A stretch of DNA of 64,000 nt from Thermodesulfobacteriota bacterium (GTDB lineage Bacteria > Desulfobacterota_D > UBA1144 > Nemesobacterales > UBA2774), in contig BQJP01000001.1 in the NCBI GenBank assembly GCA_021604765.1, positions 262,226 to 326,225 on the forward strand, given 5' to 3'. A model generated the notes under the pieces. The model ran no database searches. It was not told the DNA's origin and saw nothing but the letters and a program-made list of their open reading frames with translations. The position numbers and the translations under genes are program-made. Below, in pieces: positions 1 through 30,212 of this stretch (the stretch's first letter is position 1; every line of letters starts with the position of its first letter).

Positions 1-1540
1 TACTGTTAACTCGATTAAGAACCTGTCGAACTCACTTGAATTTGACGGCGTGCCTTCTATTGAAGAACTGGACGCGGGGCTTGAGGAACTTATTAACGCA
101 GCTGAGCTTGACCCGGATATCATCCAGGACTATCTCGATCTGCGTAATGCAATCCTTGAGGCACAAAGGGCCATACTTGGCTCGATCCAATCAATTATTT
201 CAAGCATCAGCTCGCTTAACAGCATTATTGTCGACGGCGGCGGAAGCGCCTTTGACCTGACCGGTTTCATAAACCAGGGGCTTGGCTCTGTTCAAGGCCT
301 ATTGGGACAGGACGGGCTAAGTGTTGAAGATAGAGAAGAACTCTTGGGACTGGGCACGGGATTTCTTGACCAGTTAATCGCAGAGGAGCAGGCAGCGTTT
401 CAGGCGCAGCTCCAAGCAGCACAAGCCGCGGCTGAGGCGCAGAGAAATGCAATCAGGTCTCAAATAAACGGGCTTGAGGAAGAAAGAGATTTAATCGAGG
501 AAAATTTTGACGCGCGCCTTGAAGCGCTTCAAGAAGAGCTTCGTTTGGCAGAAGAATTCGCTCGATTAACAGAGTCTATTCAGCAAACATTAAACAGCAT
601 TATCCTCGGCCCCGACAGCGTGTTCACAGCGGTTGAGCGGCTTAACATAGTGCAGGGCGACATCGCGTCTTTACAGTCCGAGCTTGCCGCAACAACAGAT
701 CCGTCAAAACAGTTGGAGCTTGCAGCACAGCTTGAGGATTCACTTAGCACGCTGTTTGACCTGGCAGGGGAGGCGTTTGGGGTTAACTCGCCTGAGTTTA
801 CAGCAATTTTCTCACAAGTAACCGGCGGGCTCAATGATCTGATCGACCTTACAGGAAATAGGGAACGTTCTGTAGAAGAGATAAACGCTGAGATCGAATC
901 GCTTAACATCGAGCGTAACCAGCAGTTAGAAGCAATCGACGCTCAGATAGAGAGTCTCAATGACCAACTGTCGTCAATTCAGGCGCAGAATGTAGAGGCA
1001 ACTTTCCAGGCGTCAGACCGAGTTCAAGAATTAGCAGAGTTCTTCCGCAATGAATATATTGCGCTCCTTGAGGAAAGGTTTGCTCAGCTGGGAGAGGTTT
1101 CCGAGACAGGATTTACGGAAGAGTTGGACGCGCTTAATTCTCTTGTACAGCTTGAGGCTGAGCTTGGTGAGAAGATTGACCAGGGACTTCAAATTGAAGA
1201 CTCGATGCTTATTGTGCTTAGAAATATTAATGATGCGCTGGGCGGGGTTCCGAGCTTTATGAACGGCACTGGAGGGTTTCAAGACTTTGGCAATGGAACT
1301 CTTGCGCTTCTCCACGGACGGGAAGCGGTGATTCCCGAGTCAGGGTTTATACCGTTTAGTAATTTCCAAGAAGCTCCCGGTGAGATGAACGTCAATATTA
1401 ATGTGAACGTGGACGGTGGCTCAAGCGGGACTGTTGATACGCTTGCTACCAACATCGAGGACATGCTCGTTAGGAGTATCCGGCAGGGCGGGAAGCTGAG
1501 AAGCGCTGTGCAGGAAGCCGGGGCTAAGAGGTTGAATTAA
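1..1540 (+). CDS. Phage tail tape-measure protein, C-terminal part. The gene runs off the window's left edge; the track start at 50 is an internal GTG.
   Basis: Reading frame is open from position 2. The protein is a long A/E/L/Q-rich coiled coil. It sits immediately upstream of the tail, fiber and lysis genes. Confidence 0.55.
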   Translation, partial: TVNSIKNLSNSLEFDGVPSIEELDAGLEELINAAELDPDIIQDYLDLRNAILEAQRAILGSIQSIISSISSLNSIIVDGGGSAFDLTGFINQGLGSVQGLLGQDGLSVEDREELLGLGTGFLDQLIAEEQAAFQAQLQAAQAAAEAQRNAIRSQINGLEEERDLIEENFDARLEALQEELRLAEEFARLTESIQQTLNSIILGPDSVFTAVERLNIVQGDIASLQSELAATTDPSKQLELAAQLEDSLSTLFDLAGEAFGVNSPEFTAIFSQVTGGLNDLIDLTGNRERSVEEINAEIESLNIERNQQLEAIDAQIESLNDQLSSIQAQNVEATFQASDRVQELAEFFRNEYIALLEERFAQLGEVSETGFTEELDALNSLVQLEAELGEKIDQGLQIEDSMLIVLRNINDALGGVPSFMNGTGGFQDFGNGTLALLHGREAVIPESGFIPFSNFQEAPGEMNVNINVNVDGGSSGTVDTLATNIEDMLVRSIRQGGKLRSAVQEAGAKRLN

Positions 1541-1566
1541 GTGTGTTGACTCGAATAATTTGCGCG

Positions 1567-1590
1567 TCCTTTTGATTGACCAAAAGGACC
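1567..1590 (+). terminator. Perfect 9-bp stem hairpin (GTCCTTTTG-ATTGAC-CAAAAGGAC) after the tape-measure stop; no T-run follows.
   Basis: Inverted repeat read directly from the sequence. Confidence 0.3.
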
Positions 1591-1617
1591 AAAAGTCACC
1601 CTCCAGGACATGAATTA

Positions 1618-1739
1618 CGCTAAAAATAAATTTCATCTCTAAATGATTTAATTCTACCCACATCCCGCAAATCATTTTTAACGTTCTGAAATTTATTTTC
1701 TAAACGCTATTCATGTATTTCGGGGAAATAAAAGCAAAG
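1618..1739 (+). promoter_or_regulatory. Copy A of a repeated ~120-bp intergenic element with nested dyads (AAAATAAATTT..AAATTTATTTT and AAATGATTT..AAATCATTT).
   Basis: Near-identical to 8355..8478. Both copies lie directly upstream of the first gene of a + strand module. Confidence 0.55.
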
Positions 1740-1777
1740 AAATAAACAAAAGAAGGTAGAGGTTAAGGATAAAAACT

Positions 1778-2575
1778 ATGGCGAATAGGAAATTATCAAA
1801 CAGTTTTTTGGGTATATCAGCAGATGCGAATACTACATCTGAGGCGACTAATTTTCCAAAGGAAAATGCAATAAATAGAACCAGTCCTCAGCGGCACTGG
1901 CGAAGTACTGTTACAACAGATACTAGGCTAGTTATTAATCTGGGCGCAGTTCAAACAAATCTGACCTGCTATTTGGATGATGTGAATTTTAGTTCGTTTA
2001 AGTATCAAGAAAGTGCTGACGGATCTAGTGGCTGGTCTGATATAGGAGCAACCAAGACAGTTGAGAAAGACCCTATGCATGGAATATATAGAAGAACGGA
2101 TGATATAACGCTTACTGGCAAGCAGTATCTGGGAATACTCATAGATACTCAGACACCGGTTGATAATGCTGGTTACTTTAGAATAGGCACATTCGCCATT
2201 CCTATGAGCGTTGTTGAATTAGACGCGGAGACTACGGTTGAATACCCATATGATGTAACACTCCCGAGCTCTCACATTGTCGAAAATAGATTTCCGACAG
2301 GGAAAACGGAGAAGATAAAACTAGGCCGATTGCAGCCGATGGTTATTTCCTTTGCACTCAAAACAGGGGTGCATCAAAACATAAAAGGGCAGGCAGTACA
2401 AGAAATCTCCAATCTGCTCAGAGATCCTACCAATACAATTTTCCTCGACTTTAACCTTGGGGAATCCTGGCAAGCGTATCTGGTTAAAAAATCAGGCGAT
2501 TTACGTGCTTCGCTGAGTACGCCTGCCACAGGAACTGCCGATTTCGGCAGCGTTCTATTTGATGTAATTACATAA
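1778..2575 (+). CDS. Phage tail protein, possibly a distal-tail or minor tail component.
   Basis: It follows the tape-measure gene and has an RBS AGGTAGAGG. Identity was assigned from its position in the tail module only. Confidence 0.4.
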   Translation: MANRKLSNSFLGISADANTTSEATNFPKENAINRTSPQRHWRSTVTTDTRLVINLGAVQTNLTCYLDDVNFSSFKYQESADGSSGWSDIGATKTVEKDPMHGIYRRTDDITLTGKQYLGILIDTQTPVDNAGYFRIGTFAIPMSVVELDAETTVEYPYDVTLPSSHIVENRFPTGKTEKIKLGRLQPMVISFALKTGVHQNIKGQAVQEISNLLRDPTNTIFLDFNLGESWQAYLVKKSGDLRASLSTPATGTADFGSVLFDVIT

Positions 2576-2597
2576 CAAATACAGAGAGGTAAATAAT

Positions 2598-3362
2598 ATG
2601 GGATTAAGTACTTATGCCGCCAATAAGGTCTTGGATCATCTATGCGGGACAGCAAATTGGTCAATACCAACAACAGAAATATCATTACACTCGACTGACC
2701 CTGGATTGACAGGAGCCAACGAAGTAAGCGCTGGATGGTATTCCAGGAAACAGCCCGCATCGGGGTGGAATGTAGCAACTACAGCGGGTGTAACAAATAA
2801 TGGCCAGGTTACATGGGATGCTGTAATAGGCTCTGATGTCACAGTGACCCATATTGGCCTTTGGGATACAGAAGGTTCATCTAATTTCTTGTTCAGCATA
2901 GATATTGCGAATAAAACCTTTACAGCGGGTTCCGTCCCCAAAATTTTAGACGGAACAATTTTGATAACTCCTGGTGCTGCATATCATAACGATATAAAAG
3001 CAGCAATTGCAGATCATCTGGTTGGTCGTGCTGCAATGGCATTTGATACTTCCGTGCATCTTGCCTTATATACAGTCTCTCCTACTCAATCAACCAATGG
3101 AACTGAGGCAATTGGCGGCAGTTATGCAAGGCAATCGATAGATTTTGATGCCGCTGCAAGTGGTGCTACTGATAACACAGATGAAGAAAATTTCCCCACA
3201 GCAACAGCAGATCTGGGAACTATTTTAGCCTTTGCTATTAGATCAGAATCATCTGGGACAGCAGGCAATATGCACCTGTTCGGAGCCTTGACCTCAAGCA
3301 TTATCGTTAATAATCAAGATGAATATAAAGCCTTAGTTGGCGCAATCGATTTTACTATATAA
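2598..3362 (+). CDS. Phage tail protein; specific role not assigned.
   Basis: Tightly packed between tail genes and preceded by an RBS GAGAGG. Confidence 0.4.
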   Translation: MGLSTYAANKVLDHLCGTANWSIPTTEISLHSTDPGLTGANEVSAGWYSRKQPASGWNVATTAGVTNNGQVTWDAVIGSDVTVTHIGLWDTEGSSNFLFSIDIANKTFTAGSVPKILDGTILITPGAAYHNDIKAAIADHLVGRAAMAFDTSVHLALYTVSPTQSTNGTEAIGGSYARQSIDFDAAASGATDNTDEENFPTATADLGTILAFAIRSESSGTAGNMHLFGALTSSIIVNNQDEYKALVGAIDFTI

Positions 3363-3368
3363 AAAACT

Positions 3369-6300
3369 ATGCCAAATATAACTGTATTTGCAACGACTGC
3401 TATAGATGATAGTACTGTAGGAACTAAGGCGTGGTCTAATCCTGGCAATGTTACAGCGGATGATGGCAATTGGGGTACTGGAGCTGGACTAGCGATTTTT
3501 GCTACTGATGCTTCTGCTGTAGCTAATTCGCATTATATACGATGTACCCCAGGCAGCCTGGCTGCTATTCCCGCTACAGCAACAATAGAGGGAATAGAGA
3601 TTGAATTAGAACGCGCCGAACAGGCGGATAATAGAAATGTGGTGGATTTTAGTGTTAGGTTATATAAGGCCGGCTCCACTAATGCTTACGTTGGTGATAA
3701 CAAAGCCGATACGTTAACCGAGTGGGCAATCGGTGATGGTACGACAGGTCAGCAGGAAATAGTAACTTACCCTCCATCAGCAGGCTCTACAGATCTTTGG
3801 GGAACTACTTGGACTAGAGATGAAGTAGTTAACGACCTTCAAGTAGGGATATCAGCCACTTCTGATCCTATGTCTGGTTTTGTAGCAGCAGGTTTAGATT
3901 ATGTAAAATTCACTATTTATTATAGTGTTCCAATCGAAGAAATTGCAGCTAATACCAATGTCGATTGGACAGGGTCCGCAACAATTGCAGGTGGGCTTGC
4001 AAAAATAGAAGCTCATGTAAATAGCGATTGGTCTGGTTCTGCTTCTATACTAGCTGAGAAGCACTTAGCTTCGAATGTAGATATAGATTGGTCTGGAAGT
4101 GCTTCAATCACATCCGATTTTAGTTTCAAATGGTCTGTTGAGCATTTAGAAGCAAGCACTTCTCACGGTTTCCCAAGCGTATATGTAGAGGTCGATAACA
4201 CTACTCAGCCTGCTGACGACTTCTCTTCACTTGTAAGCAACGAAGTGGTTTTTGAAAGAAGGTTACTAGAGATGCCGAGGTTGCAAGAGGTGCAGCTTGA
4301 TGAGCGTTCTGGTTTGGCTGGCTTTCAAAGAGTAACTATTCAGGCGGATAACTCAGACGGATTATTAAATGGCTTGGATCTGCAAGACTCATTTGTAAGA
4401 ATGTTTTTTGTAGATGCTGACGGGGTCTCGTATAAAGAATTTAATGGAAAAGTAGTAGATTGGATCCTTTCTCATACAGTTACAATCAATGTCGAAGATT
4501 TAGATGCGCTTGCGTTTACTCAGGAGCTTCCAAAGCGAACGCTTAATGATTTGGTAGAGTCTGAGAAAGAAAGACTTGATACTCCTGGGACCCAAACTGA
4601 GCTTGCAGAGTTTACAAACTCAGTTGTTGCTAATGATCTCGGAAAACCAATTCCAATCATGTTTGGCAGGGCTGTGAAAGTTCCGCTGCTTTATATAAAA
4701 GCAGATGAAACGCTTGTAATGGATGAATCAAAAAGGGAATACGATTATATACTTGGACAAGGGATAGGGTTAAATGGTAATAACTTTGAAGAAGTATTTA
4801 CTGTTTATAGAGATGAAAGGACGTTGGGTGATATAGAGGGACAGGTAAATTTTGGCGCATCCGATCTCAATACTGTAGCATTGGAAGCAGCAGATAATAA
4901 CCCCGACAATTTTTATCAATACTGGTATCTGGAACTATTCGATGATTCAGGATTAACTGATTTAGTAGATACGAAATATGTTACTAGTTCTACGGAGGAC
5001 AGCACAACGCCAACTGTTGAACTGGATAGCAATTTAGACTTATCTGGAAGCTCATCGCCCTATTATTATAGGTTAAGAGAATATCGCTTTTATGATGGTT
5101 CTCAGACGAGTCCTTATCCTGGTTATGCGTTTATAAGGTCTAAAAAACGCTTCGGTACTTCTAGCAGGACTGATGATTTATACGCTGACGTTAATGGGTT
5201 TCAGGATGAAGTAAATAGAGTACGAGCGATTGAAAGTATTTTGTCCAACAGCACTTGGGGGTTAGGCTTAACCGTTGATGCCACAAGTTTTACAACGGCG
5301 GCCGATATATTCTGGAATTCTTCTACTATGATGGGAATAGACCCCTTTACATGTGAAGGGGCAATTCTTAACCAAACTACAGCAACCGATATCTTCCAAA
5401 AATTGTTGTCCTTCAGGGATATGGTCTTGTATAAGGAAAGTGATATAAAAATATCTGTCGATCAGGATAAACCGACACCCGTCTTTAACTTCGGCTTGGG
5501 AGATGAAGCTGGATACAACAATATATTAAACGCAAGTCCTGCAATAACTTACAAACATCCTAATGAAAAAGTTAAGGATTTAAAAGTAAGATACAGAAAG
5601 AATCATAGAGAAAATGATACATACCTTCACGAATTCACAAGGGCATCCAGCACAAATGGTGTAGATGAAAATCTTGATATGCCATTTGTTTACGATCACG
5701 AAACTGCGGATAGGGCGCTTGATTACAAACGTAAGAGATTTGCTGCAGCGGATAGAAATTTGTCATTGGATATTGGGGACGACGGCAAAAAGGCCAAAAG
5801 AGGGGATTTGGTAACCATTGATATTCCAACTTTGGGAATTTCCTCCAATTGGGAAATCATAAGTTCAAGTGTGACTCCGGCGGGATCAAATAATCTTAAT
5901 CTGGCTCCTTTTAGCTCTGCACCCTATTCATATACCTCTTTTACTTCTGATGGCGGCACATTGCCAGTAGATGAGAGCTTTGATATACCACCTGATTATA
6001 CAAATTCGGCGCCATTTCCAGCAACTAGTGTGTCCGTAAGTATGCTTGAAGATGTGGTTGCTTTAACTATCTTCCCTTATGCGAAGATTACCTGGACTCC
6101 ACCTGAAGATAATTATGGCGGAGCGGTGGTAAGCGTGAAACTCCATAGCGAGGGATCCTCTGAATGGCGGGATATAGGAACATTTGATACCACTGCCAGA
6201 ATAGAAAGTTTGATACCGGGTCAACTATACGATTTTAGAATCACTTCTCTAAACATTACTGGCGAACGCAAAGGGTTAGCAGTTTTAGATGATAATTCAG

Positions 6301-7070
6301 GCAATGGTTACTTGGCTGGTGGCGACAGTTCCAGTCCAAACACTCCTACAGGATTAACGGGCTCTAGTAAATTTGGAGAACTTATATGGACTTGGACAAA
6401 TAGTACTTCTAATGATGTTAAATATCATGAAGTTCAGGTTTATAGTGCCTCATCTGGTGGAACACTTTTAGACAGCAAGAAGTATTTCGAAGGGGATATA
6501 CCGCAGCATAAATATACAAGGCAAACAGGCAATTTGACTAGTTCACTGTCAGGTTGGGCTAGAGTCCGAGCTGTAGATTATTCGGGTAATCCAACAGCAG
6601 CTGAAACCGGTTGGACGGTGAGGGTTCAGGCAATAACGGGGGAAGTTGGTAGGGGAGATGCTACCAATAATGATTTTAATTCGCAGGCCAGCGCATTTAA
6701 TAATGGAACCATTACTTTAGATGATGGATTGTTTACAGAAATAATTAGTGTATCAAAGTTTATAAATTCAGGGCAGCAAGTATCAATTAATGTAGGTTTC
6801 AATTATAGATTTACCGCAGATGCAGGCACGCCAAATACAACTCAAGGTAAGATTTTCCAGATTAAAAAAGGTGGTGTATCCCTCGGTCCCAACTATCGCC
6901 TTCCAACACTAAGGCAAGTAGGTGACGATGGTTGGGTGGGGATAACAGTTTTCGATATACCTGGAAATGGAACATTCACTTATTCAGTAGATGTAGAAAG
7001 CACAGACCCCCTTGTCCTTACAACGGCGGCGTCTACCAGGAGGATTGATATAAATGAATTCAGAAGGTAG
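3369..7070 (+). CDS. Phage tail fiber / host-specificity protein with fibronectin type III-like domains and three tandem 23-aa repeats (..DWSGSASI..).
   Basis: The protein is 1233 aa. An FN3-like segment reads WTPPEDNYGG...YDFRITSLNITGE. The tandem repeat lies at about nt 3955-4110. Placement matches lambda J-like genes. Confidence 0.55.
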   Translation: MPNITVFATTAIDDSTVGTKAWSNPGNVTADDGNWGTGAGLAIFATDASAVANSHYIRCTPGSLAAIPATATIEGIEIELERAEQADNRNVVDFSVRLYKAGSTNAYVGDNKADTLTEWAIGDGTTGQQEIVTYPPSAGSTDLWGTTWTRDEVVNDLQVGISATSDPMSGFVAAGLDYVKFTIYYSVPIEEIAANTNVDWTGSATIAGGLAKIEAHVNSDWSGSASILAEKHLASNVDIDWSGSASITSDFSFKWSVEHLEASTSHGFPSVYVEVDNTTQPADDFSSLVSNEVVFERRLLEMPRLQEVQLDERSGLAGFQRVTIQADNSDGLLNGLDLQDSFVRMFFVDADGVSYKEFNGKVVDWILSHTVTINVEDLDALAFTQELPKRTLNDLVESEKERLDTPGTQTELAEFTNSVVANDLGKPIPIMFGRAVKVPLLYIKADETLVMDESKREYDYILGQGIGLNGNNFEEVFTVYRDERTLGDIEGQVNFGASDLNTVALEAADNNPDNFYQYWYLELFDDSGLTDLVDTKYVTSSTEDSTTPTVELDSNLDLSGSSSPYYYRLREYRFYDGSQTSPYPGYAFIRSKKRFGTSSRTDDLYADVNGFQDEVNRVRAIESILSNSTWGLGLTVDATSFTTAADIFWNSSTMMGIDPFTCEGAILNQTTATDIFQKLLSFRDMVLYKESDIKISVDQDKPTPVFNFGLGDEAGYNNILNASPAITYKHPNEKVKDLKVRYRKNHRENDTYLHEFTRASSTNGVDENLDMPFVYDHETADRALDYKRKRFAAADRNLSLDIGDDGKKAKRGDLVTIDIPTLGISSNWEIISSSVTPAGSNNLNLAPFSSAPYSYTSFTSDGGTLPVDESFDIPPDYTNSAPFPATSVSVSMLEDVVALTIFPYAKITWTPPEDNYGGAVVSVKLHSEGSSEWRDIGTFDTTARIESLIPGQLYDFRITSLNITGERKGLAVLDDNSGNGYLAGGDSSSPNTPTGLTGSSKFGELIWTWTNSTSNDVKYHEVQVYSASSGGTLLDSKKYFEGDIPQHKYTRQTGNLTSSLSGWARVRAVDYSGNPTAAETGWTVRVQAITGEVGRGDATNNDFNSQASAFNNGTITLDDGLFTEIISVSKFINSGQQVSINVGFNYRFTADAGTPNTTQGKIFQIKKGGVSLGPNYRLPTLRQVGDDGWVGITVFDIPGNGTFTYSVDVESTDPLVLTTAASTRRIDINEFRR

Positions 7071-7404
7071 AAAAACAATATTTGTCTGCATAGTAAACAA
7101 AGATACAGGAGAAATTTATAGCAACTGCGCAAAGTGTTGTGTTGTGTCTATGGATAACGAAATAAACGTTATAGACTACCCCTGCCCTAAAGATCATACC
7201 GTTATAGAAATAACACAAGAAGAATTTCAACAAATGCATGAAACAATAACTAAAAACGGAGACCAGATTCATGCTCATAGAATTGAATTATCCAAAAGCA
7301 AAAGGCAGGTAAAGAACAGGGACAAAGAAGAATATACGGTTAACGAACATGGTATTAGTTATCAGAACTTAAGACCAGTAAAAGCAACAAAAGAGAATAG
7401 ATAA
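7054..7404 (+). CDS. AT-rich hypothetical protein, a candidate moron between the tail fiber and the lysis genes.
   Basis: Local GC is clearly below the flanks. It overlaps the fiber stop codon and has its own downstream terminator. Confidence 0.35.
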   Translation: MNSEGRKTIFVCIVNKDTGEIYSNCAKCCVVSMDNEINVIDYPCPKDHTVIEITQEEFQQMHETITKNGDQIHAHRIELSKSKRQVKNRDKEEYTVNEHGISYQNLRPVKATKENR

Positions 7405-7410
7405 AAAAAT

Positions 7411-7480
7411 AGGGCGGCGGCGCACATATAAGCAGGATAGACATCCTCCTTACCTCCTTTACACGCGCCGGCGCCCTTTT
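7411..7480 (+). terminator. GC-rich inverted repeat (GGGCGGCGGCGC ... GCGCCGGCGCCC) followed by TTTTAT.
   Basis: Read directly from the sequence. The loop is unusually long, about 40 nt. Confidence 0.4.
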
Positions 7481-7488
7481 ATAAAATT

Positions 7489-8082
7489 ATGAATTTAGCA
7501 TGCCTGCAAAAATTTTCAAGTGATTTTGTTGTTAGTCTCATGCCCGAGGCAAACAAGGTCTATATAAAGCAGTATTGGCCCGTAGTCTATATGGCGCTGG
7601 ACGAATTAGGGCTCGATTATGAAGAGATGCTGCTTATGGCGCTTGGCACAATTGCGGCTGAGACCGGAAATTTCAATATCGCACTTAGAGAGTACGTGTC
7701 GCAGTATAACACCTCTGCAAATGGCAGGATGATGAACCATTACTTTGACCTCTACGATTACAGGCATGATCTGGGTAATATGGGAACTCCCGATGGTGAG
7801 AGGTACCGAGGCGGTGGGGCGATTCAGCTCACAGGTAGATACAACTTTCGAGAAGTCGGTAGGAAATTAAAGATCCCGCTTGAGGATAATCCTGATCTTA
7901 TAGAGAATCCGATAGTTTCAGCCAGGGCATTGGCGACATTTCTGCACAGCAAGGAAAATGATATAAGAGAAGCATTAGGCAGGGGTGATTTAAGAAAGGC
8001 AAGAAGGCTTGTTAACGGTGGCTCGCATGGGCTTGACCGTTTCGAGGGCACTTTCAGGAGGGGGGAGAGATTGATTGCATAG
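7489..8082 (+). CDS. Endolysin, GH19 / COG3179 lysozyme-chitinase-like.
   Basis: The motif GGGAIQLTGRYNF resembles the GH19 catalytic segment GRGPIQL..NYNY. It lies in the phage late region ahead of the holin and spanin genes. Confidence 0.55.
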   Translation: MNLACLQKFSSDFVVSLMPEANKVYIKQYWPVVYMALDELGLDYEEMLLMALGTIAAETGNFNIALREYVSQYNTSANGRMMNHYFDLYDYRHDLGNMGTPDGERYRGGGAIQLTGRYNFREVGRKLKIPLEDNPDLIENPIVSARALATFLHSKENDIREALGRGDLRKARRLVNGGSHGLDRFEGTFRRGERLIA

Positions 8083-8284
8083 GATAACAAATACCAAAGT
8101 AATAAATAACCAGTACAACAAGACTGTTTACACGGCTATTGCGGGAGCGGGTCTGACTATAATATTTGTCGCGCTTAAGGATTATGGGGTTGATGTATCG
8201 ACCGAGCTTCAAGGCGCGATAACCACTTTTACTATGATGCTGACTACTCTTTTCGTTAAGAATAGAAACACGGCTTCTGCTTGA
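8075..8284 (+). CDS. Holin-like small membrane protein with a TTG start overlapping the endolysin 3' end.
   Basis: 69 aa with a single TM helix (VYTAIAGAGLTIIFVAL). Position within the lysis cassette. Confidence 0.3.
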   Translation: MHRITNTKVINNQYNKTVYTAIAGAGLTIIFVALKDYGVDVSTELQGAITTFTMMLTTLFVKNRNTASA

Positions 8285-8354
8285 TTCTATAGGACTATGT
8301 AACTACTTTTCCTGGATGAAAAGTAGCAAAAATCACTGACATAACTCAAATTTA

Positions 8355-8478
8355 GCTAAAAATAAATTTTCTCACTAAAATGATTTAATTCCACCACAAC
8401 CCTAAATCATTTTTTAACGCTCAACAATTTATTTTCTTAACGCTATTTGAGCAAATGTCAGAAAAAAATAAAAGCAAA
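8355..8478 (+). promoter_or_regulatory. Copy B of the repeated nested-dyad intergenic element.
   Basis: About 85% identical to 1618..1739. It lies upstream of the gene starting at 8525. Confidence 0.55.
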
Positions 8479-8524
8479 TCAAAATTAAATGTGAGCGGGT
8501 TGTATCTGCCCGCAAGGGGGAGTT

Positions 8525-8851
8525 ATGTGGAAGGAACTATTTAGAATAGCGCCTGAGCTGATACCGATAATCATTCAGACTGTGATGGATCTGGAGCAGG
8601 TGGTTACAGGCATAAAGAGGGGTGAGATAAGAAAGTCGCGCGTGATGAATATTATCTCAAACATTTTAGATACAAAGGACTATTTTCTAAAACAAGATTC
8701 CGACGGGCAGATGGAGATACTAAATCTTGTCTCTATGTTTGTCGATGTGATTGTCTCGACATTTAACTACACTGGGCTTTTTGCTTCTAGTGAGAAATTA
8801 GATTTTACACCGATTCCGGTTGAACAGGGGGCTAGCAATGAGGGCAACTAA
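8525..8851 (+). CDS. Hypothetical phage protein.
   Basis: ORF with an RBS GGGGGAG, within the phage late region. Confidence 0.4.
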   Translation: MWKELFRIAPELIPIIIQTVMDLEQVVTGIKRGEIRKSRVMNIISNILDTKDYFLKQDSDGQMEILNLVSMFVDVIVSTFNYTGLFASSEKLDFTPIPVEQGASNEGN

Positions 8852-9302
8852 ACTTCTATTCATAATAAGCTTGTTAATAATGGCATCCTGTGTTGGGAAG
8901 GATCTCACTCCGGCGACTGAGGTCGTATATCAGGGCGAGTTGATAGGGAATGAAGATTTTACTTATGCTTCTGCTGCTAAGGTCGTGGAAAAATGTCTCG
9001 AAGTTAAATCCTGCATGGAACTTGGTCAAGAAGATTATCCGTTGCCTAAGATTAGAGGCATGCGCGGGGGGAATGCTGTAGAGTGTGGATCTAATGATGA
9101 TGGTACGCCTAAGCTTAAACTCGGCTGTTACACGACAGATGGTTATATAACAGTTCCACAAGGCGCAGATCTCGAAATAATCTCACACGAATGCGTGCAT
9201 CATTGGTTGTACAAAAGCACAGGAGACGCAGATCCGCTTCATAGCTCAAATTATTTCCTCTCATGCTCAGGTGGACTGAGTTTGACTGAGGATTCCGAAT
9301 AA
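8838..9302 (+). CDS. Lipoprotein carrying an HExxH motif (HECVH). Start revised from the track's TTG at 8820 to the ATG at 8838.
   Basis: Signal peptide with lipobox LIMASC. An HExxH zinc-peptidase-like motif is present. RBS GGGGG. Confidence 0.35.
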   Translation: MRATKLLFIISLLIMASCVGKDLTPATEVVYQGELIGNEDFTYASAAKVVEKCLEVKSCMELGQEDYPLPKIRGMRGGNAVECGSNDDGTPKLKLGCYTTDGYITVPQGADLEIISHECVHHWLYKSTGDADPLHSSNYFLSCSGGLSLTEDSE

Positions 9303-9303
9303 T

Positions 9304-9555
9304 ATGGTCTCTATTCTTACAACTATTTTCGGCTGGATTCTGGCCAAGGTGTTTGGATTGGTAAAGCAGAATCAGACAGAGAAGAAGTATGTTGAATCAG
9401 TGAAAGAGAATTTTGAGCTTCGGGCACAAAATGCGGGTCTTTGGAAACGAAAAGAAGTTGAGAAAAAAGAAGAAAATATAAAAGAGGAGTGGGAGAAAGG
9501 GGATGAGGAACAAAAATACGAAATACTTAAGCGTGATTTTTCTGATCTTGATTAG
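9304..9555 (+). CDS. i-spanin (Rz-like): N-terminal TM helix followed by a charged coiled coil.
   Basis: 83 aa. The TM segment is ILTTIFGWILAKVFGLV, followed by a K/E-rich helical region. The o-spanin gene starts inside its 3' end. Confidence 0.5.
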   Translation: MVSILTTIFGWILAKVFGLVKQNQTEKKYVESVKENFELRAQNAGLWKRKEVEKKEENIKEEWEKGDEEQKYEILKRDFSDLD

Positions 9556-9790
9556 CTTTACATCATGCGCACCAAGGATTATAACACCCAGGGTTGATTA
9601 TCAACCCTACGAAGAGCTTAAAGAGAGCCAGCCTAACTGCGGAGGAGAGCTCTCCGCCCTTACAAGCGCTGAGGTTAAATCTGACCAGCTTATATTAGAC
9701 ACTTTATTTTGTTACAGAACCGTCTGGAAATATTGGGAAAATGAGTATCTAATTTTAGACACTCAGCTTGGCACTATAAATCAAAATTAA
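9503..9790 (+). CDS. o-spanin (Rz1-like) outer-membrane lipoprotein, overlapped architecture.
   Basis: Signal peptide plus lipobox-like FTSC, with a Pro-containing mature region. It starts 53 nt inside the i-spanin gene in a different frame. Confidence 0.45.
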   Translation: MRNKNTKYLSVIFLILISFTSCAPRIITPRVDYQPYEELKESQPNCGGELSALTSAEVKSDQLILDTLFCYRTVWKYWENEYLILDTQLGTINQN

Positions 9791-10191: not shown

Positions 10192-11400
10192 TTAATTCTG
10201 AACTATTACAATATTGCCTTCTGTATCCACATAACCCAGATCGCCCGTTATAAACCATCCATGCTGTAGTTTCTCTGAAGTAGTATTCTTGTTATTCCAA
10301 TATCCGGGAGTCACCATCTGACCCGCTACACATATCTCTCCAACTTCGCCCACCGAAACATTTCTACCATCTGCACCTATAATCCTTATATTTACTCCCG
10401 GCAAAGCTTTTCCAATTGAGCTTGTTCCCCCGCTGTTGAGCTCTCTATTTATAGTGAGCCAAATTGCCTCTGTCATGCCGTAGCCAAGTTGTATTATCAG
10501 GCCGGAATGATCATAAAACTTTTTTTGGAGTTCTGTAGAGATCGATTTCCCTCCGGTATAGATTCCTCTTAAAGTGGCGAATGTGTCTTTCTCCGTCATT
10601 CCTGAGTCGAGTATTTTCTCATAAACTCCGATGTGTGTAATCATCAGTGTAGGGCGTTCGTTTACAAGAGCGGGGATGGTATCCTCAACTCTATACCCCT
10701 CGTGCACAAAAATTGTCGCGCCATAGTTTAGCCCTGTGAATGTCTCAAGAAATCCGCTTATATTTATCTGTGGGTCAAGGACGAGTATCCTGTCATTTTC
10801 AGTAACATTTTCTAAAGCCGCTGAAGTGGATTCAAATATTCCAGTCATTGACGAGTAAGTGTGTGTGATTCCGTTAAACCCTCCATTTGCAGAAGGGGTG
10901 TAGAAAACCACAGCAGGATCATTCTCACTCACTTGCGTTTCATTGTATTCCCCAGCAGGTCCAAGCAGTGAGTAGAAATTATTGTAACCCTCTCTTGGTA
11001 CAACTCCGTTTACATATACAGTCTGTACTGAAGTTTTTTTGAGATCTATTTCTTCAAGCAAGCTAAGCTTGTCGAGTTCTATAATGAGACACTTTGCCCC
11101 TGATTCAATCAGAATATTTCTGAGCTCTCCCGCACCCAGTCTTCTACTTAAGGGCATTGCCACAGCTCCGGATTTAAAACAGGCCAGATAAGTAACCATA
11201 AGGTCAAACCCGTTAGGCATCATAAACGCAATGGGCTCACCCTTTAGTTCCATGGCGGTAAACCAAGTGGACATATGGCGTGACATAAGCTCGAGGTCTC
11301 CGTAAGTAAAAGACTCTTCTTTAAACTTAAGCGCAATGGTGTCCAGGTTTCTCTCTAATGTGAAATCTCTAATGTTTTCTATTCTGTTTGAGTCGCTCAT
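10192..11400 (-). pseudogene. AMP-dependent synthetase/ligase (adenylate-forming) truncated after the TGD motif, with a degenerate P-loop.
   Basis: Motifs GYGMTE, GEICV.G..V..GYW and WFITGDLG are present. The ORF stops about 20 aa later. The C-terminal subdomain of roughly 100 aa is missing. The stop sits 8 bp from the phage block. Confidence 0.45.
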
Positions 11401-11450
11401 AAGGACGTAATCTTAACAGGGAATCCACTCTATTCAAAGGTGGTTTGGTT

Positions 11451-11873
11451 CTATGGAAGGATAATGTCGCAAGTGAAATCAAAGGGACCTGAACCGTTTA
11501 GGTTTGCAAATCCGATAAATGAATTACCTGGTAGAATTTCCGATGTGGAAAGTATTGCCTCTCCAACAACTTCTCCTGTATCAGATAAAAGATCACAGTC
11601 GAGATTAGTGCAGCGGTCTATTCTGCTACAGTCCTCGCCGTTAATTATTGAAAAGTCTATCGGTGGCAAAGGGCCTCCCATCTGCTGAGTGAACTCACAT
11701 TCAAACGAGTTGCATACTGCTTTTATTGCATCATTTGGACATCCAGCAAAGGCAAGCATGAAGTTATTTACGTTTGTAATCTCAGTACATTGATTGTTGC
11801 CCCCGCTGTCACAAGCTGTGAGGCTAAGAAGAAAGAATATCGGAATGATTAAAACTAAGAGCTTGTTCTTCAT
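11451..11873 (-). CDS. Cys-rich lipoprotein, hypothetical.
   Basis: Signal peptide with lipobox LTAC. Confidence 0.4.
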   Translation of the reverse strand: MKNKLLVLIIPIFFLLSLTACDSGGNNQCTEITNVNNFMLAFAGCPNDAIKAVCNSFECEFTQQMGGPLPPIDFSIINGEDCSRIDRCTNLDCDLLSDTGEVVGEAILSTSEILPGNSFIGFANLNGSGPFDFTCDIILP

Positions 11874-11956
11874 AATGCAATTGTCTCTGATTTTTTAGGT
11901 GGTTTCTACAAAAATTTAATTATAATAATAAATTCACAATAGAGCGCTTGGCGGTA

Positions 11957-12340
11957 TTACCACTCCTCACCAATCCATTTGATCGCTTCTTCAAGCTCGT
12001 CGTTGTGAAATACTTTTACATCCCCGGGGACTGACATTGTCTCGATTGCAAAGCCGAATATTTTCCCCGCCTGCTGGATCCAATTCACATCAGTCACAAT
12101 TGCGATCTTCTCCCAGTCTGTAATATGAGCAAGCCCGACTTTGGCATCATCCCACATAGCGCCTGCTTCAAATCTCTCAAACTCTTCCCCCAGATGATAA
12201 AGGAGACGAACCTTTTCGTGGAGCTTAAGTTTGTCTTCCACAGTGGGTATCAAAACCGTTTCGTAGTCTTCTGCGGTTACATTGCCCTTGGCAGTAAATC
12301 CCACAGCATTGTCTGGTAATCCTTCGATTGGTTCTAACAT
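11957..12340 (-). CDS. SpoIIAA/STAS-like small protein (DUF3478-like).
   Basis: The call rests on size and remembered family similarity only. Confidence 0.3.
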   Translation of the reverse strand: MLEPIEGLPDNAVGFTAKGNVTAEDYETVLIPTVEDKLKLHEKVRLLYHLGEEFERFEAGAMWDDAKVGLAHITDWEKIAIVTDVNWIQQAGKIFGFAIETMSVPGDVKVFHNDELEEAIKWIGEEW

Positions 12341-15236: not shown

Positions 15237-15277
15237 GAAAAGGGGGCCTTAACTGCATGCACCAAGCCCCCTTTCTT
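15237..15277. terminator. Hairpin terminator of the GGGGGC/GCCCCC type flanked by an A-run and a T-run.
   Basis: Downstream of the 15305..16153 gene. Confidence 0.45.
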
Positions 15278-16510: not shown

Positions 16511-17398
16511 TTAAGCAGCAACTTGCCTTCTTCTCATAACCATAAATCCAACTACTCCAAGAACACCAGCCATTGCAATCAAACCCCATTCAGATAGGGT
16601 TGGAACTGGTGAAGGTCCGCACGTGTCGAGCCACGCTAGACCGTCAATTTGTTCACCGTCAGCATTATTGGGGCCTATCAGCGTAGATGCGCCTGTATTT
16701 ACATTTAAGCTATACAATTCAATGCTGTTGTTTGCATAGAGAATTTCGTTTCGCTCGTCGTATGCTAAGCCCATGTTGTTTCCGGGTTCTGAGACGCCTG
16801 TGGCGCCAACTAAGCTTGTGTCCCCGGTGGTGGTGGAAATCGTATATAAATTTCCTTCTACATTCAGACCATACAAAATCTCATTTGCATCGTCATATGC
16901 TAATCCGGCGAACTCAAGACCTGAACCTACACCTATTGTCTGAGTATTCCCATTAGGGAACTGCACTGTGAGTATGCTTTCGTTATCTTCATCAGTGGAA
17001 TATAAAATGTTTTCTCCACAGTCGTCAGATGCCAGCCCCCACCAGTTGCTCGATCCGTTCTGATCGCCCAGAAATGTAATAACACCATTTGTTGCTATGG
17101 AACCTATGGTAAATTCATCCGGTATAGGGCTTCCAGGATAATCTTCGAGATCAACGCCGTAAAGAGTTCCCTCTATGTAAGATAGCCCTACTATGCTCGT
17201 CTCTCCATCGGTTGTTACAAATGGTGTTGCCTGGCCGGTGTTGGGACTAATAGTGTACAATACGCCGACATCTGCACTTGAGAGTCCGATCAACCCTTGA
17301 GGGAATCCCTGGGCATTTACTGCGCCTGCTGTTAAGAATAGAGCCAGCATTAACACTAAATTAATTCTGGCAAATAGATATACCAATCTGTTTTGCAT
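16511..17398 (-). CDS. Secreted repeat protein (beta-propeller-like) carrying a C-terminal IPTL-CTERM sorting domain.
   Basis: Signal peptide present. The C-terminus is VPTLSEWGLIAMAGVLGVVGFMVMRRRQVAA. RBS GGAGGA. Confidence 0.6.
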   Translation of the reverse strand: MQNRLVYLFARINLVLMLALFLTAGAVNAQGFPQGLIGLSSADVGVLYTISPNTGQATPFVTTDGETSIVGLSYIEGTLYGVDLEDYPGSPIPDEFTIGSIATNGVITFLGDQNGSSNWWGLASDDCGENILYSTDEDNESILTVQFPNGNTQTIGVGSGLEFAGLAYDDANEILYGLNVEGNLYTISTTTGDTSLVGATGVSEPGNNMGLAYDERNEILYANNSIELYSLNVNTGASTLIGPNNADGEQIDGLAWLDTCGPSPVPTLSEWGLIAMAGVLGVVGFMVMRRRQVAA

Positions 17399-23729: not shown

Positions 23730-24410
23730 ATGTTGAAGAAGCTAACTATAGCTACAGCTTTATTTGTTTTATTAGCACTACCTGGAATGGCAGTGGATAC
23801 ACCCGAGGTAGAAGCGCCAGCGGCACCTGAAGCAGAAGCACCACTAACTCCGGATACACCAGGGGTTGATACACCTTCAATGCCTGACGTAGAAGTTCCA
23901 GAAGTGAAAATGCCTGAGATGCCAAAAGTAGAGGCTCCTAAAATGCCAAAGGCTGATACACCGGATGCACCAGCAGTAGACGCGCCTGACGCGCCAAGCA
24001 TGGATGCACCAGATGCAGAGATGCCTGATACACCTAAAGCTGACATGCCCGACACACCTGGAGCAGAAGTACCAGATGCACCTGACGCACCGGAAGCGCC
24101 GCTAACTCCGGATACCCCAGACGTTGATACGCCTTCAATGCCTGATGTAGAAGTTCCTGAAGTGAAAGCGCCTGAGATGCCTAAGGTCGAGGCCCCTGAA
24201 ATGCCAGAAGTAAAGGCTCCAGAGATGCCTGAGGTAAAAGCGCCTGAAATGCCAAAGGCCGATGTGCCGGATGCACCAGCAGTTGATGCTCCTGACGCGC
24301 CATCAGTGGATGCACCTGACGCTCCGGAAGCTCCACTTGCCCCGGATACCCCAGACGTTGATACTCCAGAAATGCCTGATGTAGAAGCGCCAGAAGCACC
24401 AAAAAATTAA
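23730..24410 (+). CDS. Secreted Pro/Ala/Asp/Glu-rich repeat protein. Start revised to the ATG at 23730.
   Basis: Signal peptide MLKKLTIATALFVLLALPGMA. A unit of about 85 aa is duplicated and contains PDAPxVDAPDAPS and PEVKAPEMPKVEAPEMP motifs. RBS GGAGG. Confidence 0.5.
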   Translation: MLKKLTIATALFVLLALPGMAVDTPEVEAPAAPEAEAPLTPDTPGVDTPSMPDVEVPEVKMPEMPKVEAPKMPKADTPDAPAVDAPDAPSMDAPDAEMPDTPKADMPDTPGAEVPDAPDAPEAPLTPDTPDVDTPSMPDVEVPEVKAPEMPKVEAPEMPEVKAPEMPEVKAPEMPKADVPDAPAVDAPDAPSVDAPDAPEAPLAPDTPDVDTPEMPDVEAPEAPKN

Positions 24411-29717: not shown

Positions 29718-30212
29718 ATGAAAAGTTACCTTGCGGTATTTGCATTGTTTGTAGTTCTAAGTCTAGTTCTAGTTCCTGCATCTAAATCAACCGATATTAC
29801 AGATGAGTGTGTCATAGTTGAAGGGCTAGTATTCTGTGGCTCCAAGGATTGCAGAACCACTTCAAAAGGAGAGGTTGCCTGCGGTGGCAGATCGAAAGAC
29901 TGCCGCACTACTTCAGCTGGCAACGTCGCATGCGGTGGTTTATCTAAAGACTGTCGTACAACATCCGCCGGTAATGTAGCCTGTGGCGGATTATCCAAAG
30001 ACTGCAGAACAACCTCCGCTGGTAATGTCGCGTGCGGTGGATTGTCTAAAGACTGTCGTACAACTTCAAAAGGTAACGTAGCTTGCGGTGGATTATCTAA
30101 AGAATGCCGTACTACTTCCAAGGGGAATGTAGCCTGCGGAGGGATGGCTAAAGAATGTAGAACAACATCACAGGGTAATGTAGCCTGCGGTGGTCAGTGG
30201 AACTCGAACTGA
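29718..30212 (+). CDS. Secreted Cys-rich protein built from seven tandem 17-aa repeats (SKDCRTTSAGNVACGGL). Start revised to 29718.
   Basis: Signal peptide present. The 51-bp tandem DNA repeats are read directly from the sequence. Confidence 0.55.
   Translation: MKSYLAVFALFVVLSLVLVPASKSTDITDECVIVEGLVFCGSKDCRTTSKGEVACGGRSKDCRTTSAGNVACGGLSKDCRTTSAGNVACGGLSKDCRTTSAGNVACGGLSKDCRTTSKGNVACGGLSKECRTTSKGNVACGGMAKECRTTSQGNVACGGQWNSN
29841..30197 (+). repeat. Seven tandem 51-bp in-frame coding repeats.
   Basis: The units are nearly identical at peptide level but diverged at synonymous sites. Confidence 0.8.

Follow-up and report, generated by a model that had tools for sequence, protein, structure and literature searches.

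The window analysed here is a stretch of 64,000 nucleotides of a Thermodesulfobacteriota bacterium (assembly GCA_021604765.1, contig BQJP01000001.1, positions 262,226 to 326,225), in which the first ~10.2 kb is the right end of a prophage, its genes all lying on the plus strand; host genes begin at window position 10192. Two spacers in the prophage part carry full units of one element of about 165 nt, copy A (window 1564-1728) and copy B (window 8301-8464), which folds into a small hairpin named P0, a linker and a long hairpin. An earlier sequence-only reading had reported two like stretches with nested inverted repeats, and both stretches and the quoted repeats were present where it had placed them. 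The likeness held, while the length of ~120 bp given for it was too short: the copies are alike from about 55 nt further 5', and P0 lies in this extension.

Relatives were obtained from genomes, metagenomes and viral contigs as the DNA that surrounds homologues of g265, a 265-aa gene lying downstream of copy A, and these loci are labelled L0xx. The element was searched in them with a profile and then with a covariance model (R1), and contigs with the head module of the phage family were found by scanning viral contigs with two conserved element words. The parts of the two copies are as follows.

1566..1589, plus strand: hairpin P0 of copy A, GTCCTTTTG / loop ATTGAC / CAAAAGGAC (sequence and minimum-energy fold)
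1590..1598, plus strand: unpaired linker CAAAAGTCA of copy A (family consensus GCAAAAAUCA, nearly invariant in 21 distinct copies)
1599..1725, plus strand: long five-helix hairpin of copy A (fold, covariation, and 145 bits, E ~1e-27, with the covariance model from relatives)
1608-1615 with 1709-1716, plus strand: copy A helix, ACATGAAT with ATTCATGT
1623-1633 with 1689-1699, plus strand: copy A helix, AAAATAAATTT with AAATTTATTTT, an inverted repeat quoted earlier
1641-1649 with 1669-1677, plus strand: copy A helix, AAATGATTT with AAATCATTT, the other inverted repeat quoted earlier
1650-1668, plus strand: C-rich loop of copy A
1705..1745, plus strand: 3' box CGCTATTCATGTATTTCGGGG and purine-rich tail AAATAAAAGCAAAG of copy A (conserved 3' block)
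8303..8326, plus strand: hairpin P0 of copy B, CTACTTTTC / loop CTGGAT / GAAAAGTAG (sequence and fold), with an identical version in copies of L044 and L077
8327..8335, plus strand: linker CAAAAATCA of copy B (sequence and family alignment)
8336..8461, plus strand: long hairpin of copy B (fold, compensatory differences against copy A, and 129 bits, E ~1e-24, with the same model)
8336-8342 with 8455-8461, plus strand: copy B helix, CTGACAT with ATGTCAG
long hairpin of copy B, plus strand: helix CTCAAAT with ATTTGAG
8377-8386 with 8404-8413, plus strand: copy B helix, AAAATGATTT with AAATCATTTT, loop 8387-8403
8440..8482, plus strand: 3' box and purine-rich tail of copy B (sequence and family alignment)

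The two copies aligned over about 200 columns with a mean column identity of 79%, and a repeat finder reported them as an ungapped 99-nt pair of 73% identity (repeat family D7). Nothing else in the 64 kb scored above 17 bits with the covariance model and all filters off, and the 54 kb of host DNA contained no copy. The earlier statement that the element occurs twice is therefore true of the window and untrue of the family, in which three copies are found within 8-11 kb of the head module on contigs of related phages.

The genes around the two copies agree with the earlier description, in which copy A follows the tape-measure gene and copy B follows the genes for an endolysin and a holin-like protein.

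50..1540, plus strand: C-terminal (3') part of the tape-measure gene, directly 5' of copy A (tblastn to L038 and L057 proteins)
1778..2575, plus strand: g265, a conserved 265-aa gene of the tail module, downstream of copy A
2598-3362, plus strand: Gp80-domain protein
3369-7070, plus strand: 1233-aa protein
7489-8082, plus strand: GH19-type endolysin, upstream of copy B (PHROG 181 and Glyco_hydro_19 matches)
8075-8284, plus strand: 69-aa holin-like protein with two hydrophobic segments, just 5' of copy B
8525..8851, plus strand: 108-aa gene (g108), downstream of copy B, with homologues at the same position in L035, L037, L057, L058 and L060

The homologues of the tape-measure protein are 1365 aa (L038) and 1565 aa (L057) long, and both match tape-measure PHROGs. 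The g265 protein has 54 homologues with 40-100% identity from Dadabacteria/Thermodesulfobacteriota metagenome-assembled genomes and metagenomes, and it places the source of the window as a metagenome-assembled genome of Thermodesulfobacteriota (Dadabacteria). Five small prophage genes lie from window 8525 onwards. A GC hairpin (GCGGG...CCCGC, window 8495-8513) was seen immediately 5' of the ribosome-binding site of g108, and a hairpin with a different stem sequence is kept before this gene in L037 (7123-7137).

The anatomy of the family was obtained as a consensus of 21 distinct copies. P0 is a 9-bp hairpin (CUUCUUUUC, a 6-nt loop and GAAAAGAAG), and it is followed by the linker, the long hairpin of ~125 nt with five helices, and a purine-rich tail. 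From base to tip, the helices of the long hairpin are a GC-rich CCGAC/GUCGG, a helix of ~11 bp, AAAAUC/GAUUUU, a variable helix and an apical helix of 10 bp, which is closed by the C-rich terminal loop AAUUCnACCnCAnCCCG. Its 3' side contains two asymmetric internal loops around UUAAC-GC. The conserved 3' block reads CGC..UGUAAUGUCGGGRA before the purine-rich tail; the middle of the 3' box is variable within a single phage. Two copies have insertions of ~90 nt in the terminal loop. The element is AT-rich (28-41% GC), even in genomes with a GC content of 50-57%.

The fold of this element is supported by several measurements. The same five-helix fold was predicted independently for 10/10 of the first-collected copies, and the folding energies of copies A and B were 2.2 and 2.6 standard deviations below those of shuffled sequence. 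RNAalifold on the raw MAFFT alignment gave two helices only, and the outer helices were taken from single-sequence folds and tested by pair counts. Using the plain MAFFT alignment, we found that 85% of cells pair, against 37-48% when the partners were slid by 1-3 columns, that double changes occur in 16 of 52 pairs, and that none of 500 shuffles reached the observed values. For the 21 distinct copies, in an alignment that was fitted to the covariance model and so is biased towards structure, 88.5% of cells pair, against 38-46% after sliding, and double changes are seen in 28 of 52 pairs, against 7-10 in the controls, again with 0/500 shuffles reaching the observed values. The P0 helix pairs in 97-98% of cells and has 3-4 compensatory pairs. 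Covariation among homologous phages, which the sequence-only reading had proposed to assess, is thus well above the controls.

Compensation can also be seen inside a single genome. The stems of P0 differ between copies A and B and remain complementary in each, and in the long hairpin CATGAAT/ATTCATG of copy A corresponds to CTCAAAT/ATTTGAG of copy B. The three copies of L077 are only 66-75% identical, and all of them fold. Because the arms differ and are still complementary within one genome, a single regulator that reads the sequence cannot explain the element, and complementarity itself must be selected. Between clades the element is 63-67% identical and the adjacent coding DNA 64-65%, and among close relatives the values are 94-96% and 94-95%. 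Element and neighbouring coding DNA thus diverge at similar rates, which indicates that the element is under constraint.

Copies were found at many junctions of the related phages. The element occupies the junction of the tape-measure gene and g265 in L036, L045, L046, L055, L057, L058, L062 and L073, the junction of the holin gene and g108 in L057 and L058, and the junction of g265 and gp80 in L046, and L044 has a tandem pair upstream of g265. In the head module, the copies of L077 are found in the leader, just before TerS and downstream of the portal gene. Those of L075 follow the portal gene, separate the scaffold gene from the major head gene, and follow the latter. The element thus recurs between cistrons, at five or more positions per phage, and is not a two-copy site. 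All full-length matches are on the coding strand, with the opposite strand reaching 24 bits at most. The element also provides a DNA marker for finding this family of phages in metagenomes.

Between the element and the next start codon lie 47 to 369 nt, a variation that rules out direct control of the ribosome-binding site. Pairing of the terminal loop with a downstream Shine-Dalgarno sequence was seen in copy A only and was dropped, as were short open reading frames from the AUG in AAUGUCGG, which are not conserved and start with ACG in some copies.

The first interpretation took these stretches for a DNA site: an operator, late promoter or activator site common to both and recognised in the double strand, for instance by a regulator of the phage. 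The position upstream of gene modules would suit such a site, and so would the TTAACGC-like repeats of the 3' half, which are spaced by ~23 bp and accompanied by phased A-tracts, the small number of G-U pairs, which is expected for DNA, and a 91-aa protein with a sigma-70 region-4 helix-turn-helix encoded inside the head module of a relative (L075:7805-8080, minus strand; 31.7 bits, above the Pfam cut-off). Against it, no conserved -35/-10 pair was found: sigma-70-type promoters were at chance level (24 found, 21.8 expected), and none was common to the copies. The dyad arms that differ yet stay complementary within one genome, the 3' box with its centre variable within one phage, the TTAAC motifs that are only semi-conserved, and the variable spacing to genes also speak against it, and we regard a DNA site as quite improbable. 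Several other readings were tried by eye and rejected. A sigma-54 promoter (GG-N10-GC) fits only copy B of the window and L044b; an extracytoplasmic-function or sigma-28-like reading of TAAC-N14-GTCGG has the wrong spacing and a variable core; and the core sites of an integron attC are absent. The 3' box as a T7-like promoter was dropped as well, its central part being variable within one phage.

The structured RNA, which the sequence-only reading had mentioned as the alternative to its operator or promoter, fits much better, with the shared fold and the covariation described above. A 125-nt imperfect palindrome with a 17-nt loop folds spontaneously with ease in RNA and with difficulty in duplex DNA. 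For this reason, and because all copies lie within an operon on its transcribed strand, RNA is favoured. A structured RNA is the most likely form of the element, and a role as single-stranded DNA or from the minus strand is possible. A sigma-70-like site (TTTATA-18-TATAAT) at L077:1708-1737 immediately precedes a leader of 1.1 kb that is rich in hairpins and is followed by the terminase genes. Judged from its sequence, this site is a candidate late promoter, and it is consistent with transcription through the elements. A plus-strand intrinsic terminator was not found: P0 and the long hairpin are each followed by A-rich or purine-rich sequence, and neither was flagged by the terminator scan.

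Our tentative proposal is a cis-acting RNA by which a temperate tailed phage of Dadabacteria punctuates its late polycistronic mRNA, in the manner of the ribonuclease III (RNase III) sites of phage T7; we consider this possible, at somewhat below even chance. When the polymerase crosses the spacer between two modules, the transcript would fold into P0 and the ~125-nt hairpin, which is an interrupted helix of roughly 45 bp. A double-strand-specific endonuclease of the host RNase III type would cut the long helix. P0 would then remain on the upstream message as a protective 3' hairpin, and the 3' box with the purine-rich tail would become the 5' end of the downstream message. Co-transcribed modules (packaging, head, tail tip plus lysis, distal genes) might in this way gain different mRNA lifetimes and yields. 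The sequence, the fold with its compensatory changes, the multiple copies, their co-orientation with the genes and their placement are observed; plus-strand transcription through the element, its cleavage and a change of expression by cleavage are inferred.

This role is suggested by the placement between modules (also on both sides of the major head gene), by the long, interrupted but nearly perfect helix and by P0 being always on the 5' side. The positions that support it are tape measure/g265, holin/g108, g265/gp80, before TerS, after portal, scaffold/major head and after major head. The RNase III sites of T7 (R0.3 ... R18.5) are alike in having multiple irregular hairpins with helices split by asymmetric internal loops, and in lying between genes of polycistronic phage transcripts and being oriented with transcription; in T7, cutting by RNase III leaves a protective 3' hairpin. 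The predicted structure has the features of a T7-type site: it is an irregular hairpin that measures at least ~20 bp and contains an internal loop, and it occurs in several similar copies in intercistronic phage spacers. There are also differences. The element is about twice as long, with an additional hairpin on its 5' side and with conservation of linker and loop; there is no sequence relation, the host phylum is unrelated, and cleavage is only predicted here.

Several observations weigh against this punctuation role. The element is absent from L038-L043, L050 and L063, related lineages with tightly packed genes, so that the earlier expectation of finding the copies in related prophages was borne out at the same two junctions in L057 and L058 and failed in these loci. 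At site B of L037 the long hairpin is gone and P0 and the linker are kept. The absence in some lineages and the loss of this hairpin mean that the element is dispensable. The pairs give no preference for the plus strand, as wobble cells number 24 G-U and 22 A-C and a U-G/C-G alternation was seen in two pairs only, and the reverse complement folds ~7.5 kcal/mol better in 19/21 copies, which is probably due to its higher G + U content. Finally, cutting by RNase III leaves the near-invariant linker, the conserved C-rich loop and the sequence conservation of P0 unexplained.

The better folding of the minus strand could be understood if the element was a terminator of the opposite strand, where the GC-rich base of the hairpin followed by UGAUUUUUGCUUCUUUUC would keep antisense transcription out of the late genes. 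A U-rich tract, the complement of the invariant linker and the P0 arm, adjoins the stem directly, all copies point in one direction, and two small hairpins of L077 were flagged as terminator-like on the minus strand. However, the U-richness may just mirror the purine-rich spacers of the plus strand, and the P0 fold, the conserved loop and the internal loops would be left unexplained. The 125-nt AU-rich hairpin is also unlike the compact GC-stem terminators of the host (repeat family D6), and an opposite-strand terminator appears very unlikely to us. In the host part of the window, compact GC-stem hairpins with T-runs (AAAAAGGGAGCC...GGCTCCCTTT) occur at 15237, 19662, 37323, 42324 and 44290; they resemble ordinary intrinsic terminators, unlike the phage hairpins.

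The unexplained conservation of linker, loop and P0 suggests a specific binding partner, and a factor-recruiting RNA is hence the first rival of the punctuation by RNase III. As in lambda nut or HK022 put, a nascent RNA of two hairpins would modify the polymerase for read-through to the next module, either by the RNA alone or with a phage or host factor bound at P0, the linker or the terminal loop. The likeness is that of a cis-acting nascent RNA repeated within one phage genome; put consists of two stem-loops and nut of a hairpin with a conserved single-stranded box, and the element can be likened to both. It has two hairpins with conserved single-stranded parts beyond the needs of folding (the linker and the terminal loop), its copies are all co-oriented with the genes, and one copy lies in the leader before the terminase genes, downstream of the promoter-like site. 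But put (~70 nt) and nut (~30 nt) follow early promoters and occur twice per genome, whereas the element has ~165 nt, at least five copies in the late region and no obvious boxA/boxB consensus, a lambda-like motif of this kind not being noticed on reading the alignments. Instead of one copy per operon just after an early promoter, at least five are spread across the late modules. Antitermination, which had been named as a possibility before, is less likely given this copy number along the operon. The lack of a conserved terminator 3' of the copies and the absence of the element from some lineages also do not favour it, and we hold a protein-recruiting RNA of the nut or put kind to be unlikely. 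Similarly doubtful is a phage RNA of a new class with an activity of its own, in which the conserved linker, the internal loops and the C-rich loop may form a specific tertiary or protein-binding core. It could cleave itself or recruit a factor, acting as "punctuation", and would set the output of every late-operon module in phages of an uncultured phylum. A 218-aa protein with a weak HEPN match below the cut-off lies just upstream of the leader (L077:997-1653), and this protein or the 91-aa protein of L075 could be a trans-acting partner of the element.

The second rival is a selfish or single-stranded-DNA element. It could be a mosaic repeat similar to BOX, Correia or REP/BIME, or a hairpin recognised as single-stranded DNA and serving transposition or priming of a displaced strand, and would have spread through permissive spacers of the phages. 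The make-up of the family is modular: P0 and the 3' box each also occur on their own in its spacers, the 3' box after small hairpins in L036, L037, L044 and L046, a second family of small hairpins shares the same spacers, and element-bearing spacers swell to 1-2 kb. Presence and copy number vary among close relatives (site C of L046, the tandem pair of L044, site B of L037), and the ~90-nt insertions in the terminal loop, the almost purely Watson-Crick pairs, the folding of both strands and the existence of whole lineages without the element would also fit. BOX of pneumococcus, Correia of Neisseria and REP/BIME of E. coli are likewise modular hairpin repeats in transcribed spacers with variable copy number and modules, and Correia elements are substrates of RNase III. 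Those repeats, however, are scattered over host chromosomes, as are miniature inverted-repeat transposable elements, whereas the element was found only in phage DNA, with none in the 54 kb of host DNA of the window and none in the host parts of the fetched loci. Site B of L037, the only "empty" site examined, still contains the 5' basal strand of the hairpin, so that it resembles a deletion more than a clean empty site, and no target duplication was seen at this one site. No transposase was seen nearby, and both junctions are occupied in lineages with g265 genes only ~65% identical in DNA. A selfish or single-stranded-DNA element is rather unlikely in our estimation.

The second small-hairpin family has variable compensating stems between a conserved GAUU... 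and ...AAUGAC(A/G)G, with several units per spacer at the same junctions as the main element. It was seen at L035:9790-9911 and 16782-16827, L052:9700-9990, L058:780-830 and 1270-1310, and L077:1800-1832, 2190-2230 and 2566-2705. The 8-mer AATGWCRG is almost only on the coding strand in the phage clusters examined.

Comparison with known elements gave no assignment. Rfam release 15 had no match at gathering score in the window, and around both copies and across L077 there were no matches or chance-level matches only (E >= 0.1). No DNA match to the prophage or the element was found in GenBank phages, and our literature search found nothing on Dadabacteria phages or on the motif. An exact 18-mer scan of viral contigs gave 33 loci sharing the 18-mer alone, which were discarded as chance matches. 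The ESAS and SAS of Cluster K mycobacteriophages are intergenic phage repeats with inverted repeats that lie upstream of many genes and have no known function. They are alike in being phage-specific and different in being motifs of 13-17 bp at a fixed distance from the start codon, while the element is a covarying fold of 165 nt at variable distance. The element is previously undescribed, an intercistronic structured repeat of phage operons that is no member of the compared systems by sequence or by the features tested; in its way of working it would come closest to the RNase III sites of T7 or to mosaic repeats such as BOX and Correia.

The prophage flank and other repeats were noted along the way. 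The right end of the prophage adjoins the same host genes (an AMP-binding enzyme, a 140-aa protein and a SpoIIAA-like protein) in window 10192-12340 and in L037:8759-10907, and in L034:19974-20336 it lies next to a SpoIIAA-like gene. Host proteins (79-82% identical) and phage proteins (72-90% identical) show parallel divergence. The shared flank could be a conserved attachment site or an old, vertically inherited element.

In L034, a more distant relative, the spacer between the tape-measure gene and g265 lacks the main element and is filled by a 160-nt tandem repeat (9246-9565, ~2.3 copies, 98% identical). Iteron-like arrays (AAATCCACAAAATGTGGA, DnaA box-like) lie upstream of the tape-measure region of the related prophage L035 (1-1125 and 3974-4209), and L034 and L035 have in common a 300-nt repeat between the 717/750-aa gene and the tape-measure gene. 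L057 has three extra tape-measure-like open reading frames of 407, 351 and 322 aa (42-4143), with gaps of ~0.8-0.9 kb, upstream of its 1565-aa tape-measure gene. In the window, 6-7 copies of a 34-142-nt repeat (16473-50592) correspond to the 3' ends of paralogous genes on the minus strand, which encode IPTL-CTERM sorting signals. At 29841-30197 there are five tandem coding repeats of 51 nt, and at 23800-24400 coding repeats rich in Pro/Ala.

The usual description of a late operon in tailed phages is a single promoter with tightly packed genes, and to our knowledge Dadabacteria is a phylum without cultured members or described phages. A fold of 165 nt with gene-like conservation, repeated at module boundaries, points to a layer of control during or after transcription in these phages. 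It is a well-supported addition to the catalogue of structured nucleic-acid motifs, and its covariance model is ready for use. Should the element prove to act in mRNA processing or in antitermination, it would offer a compact part with which the ratios of genes in an operon can be tuned.

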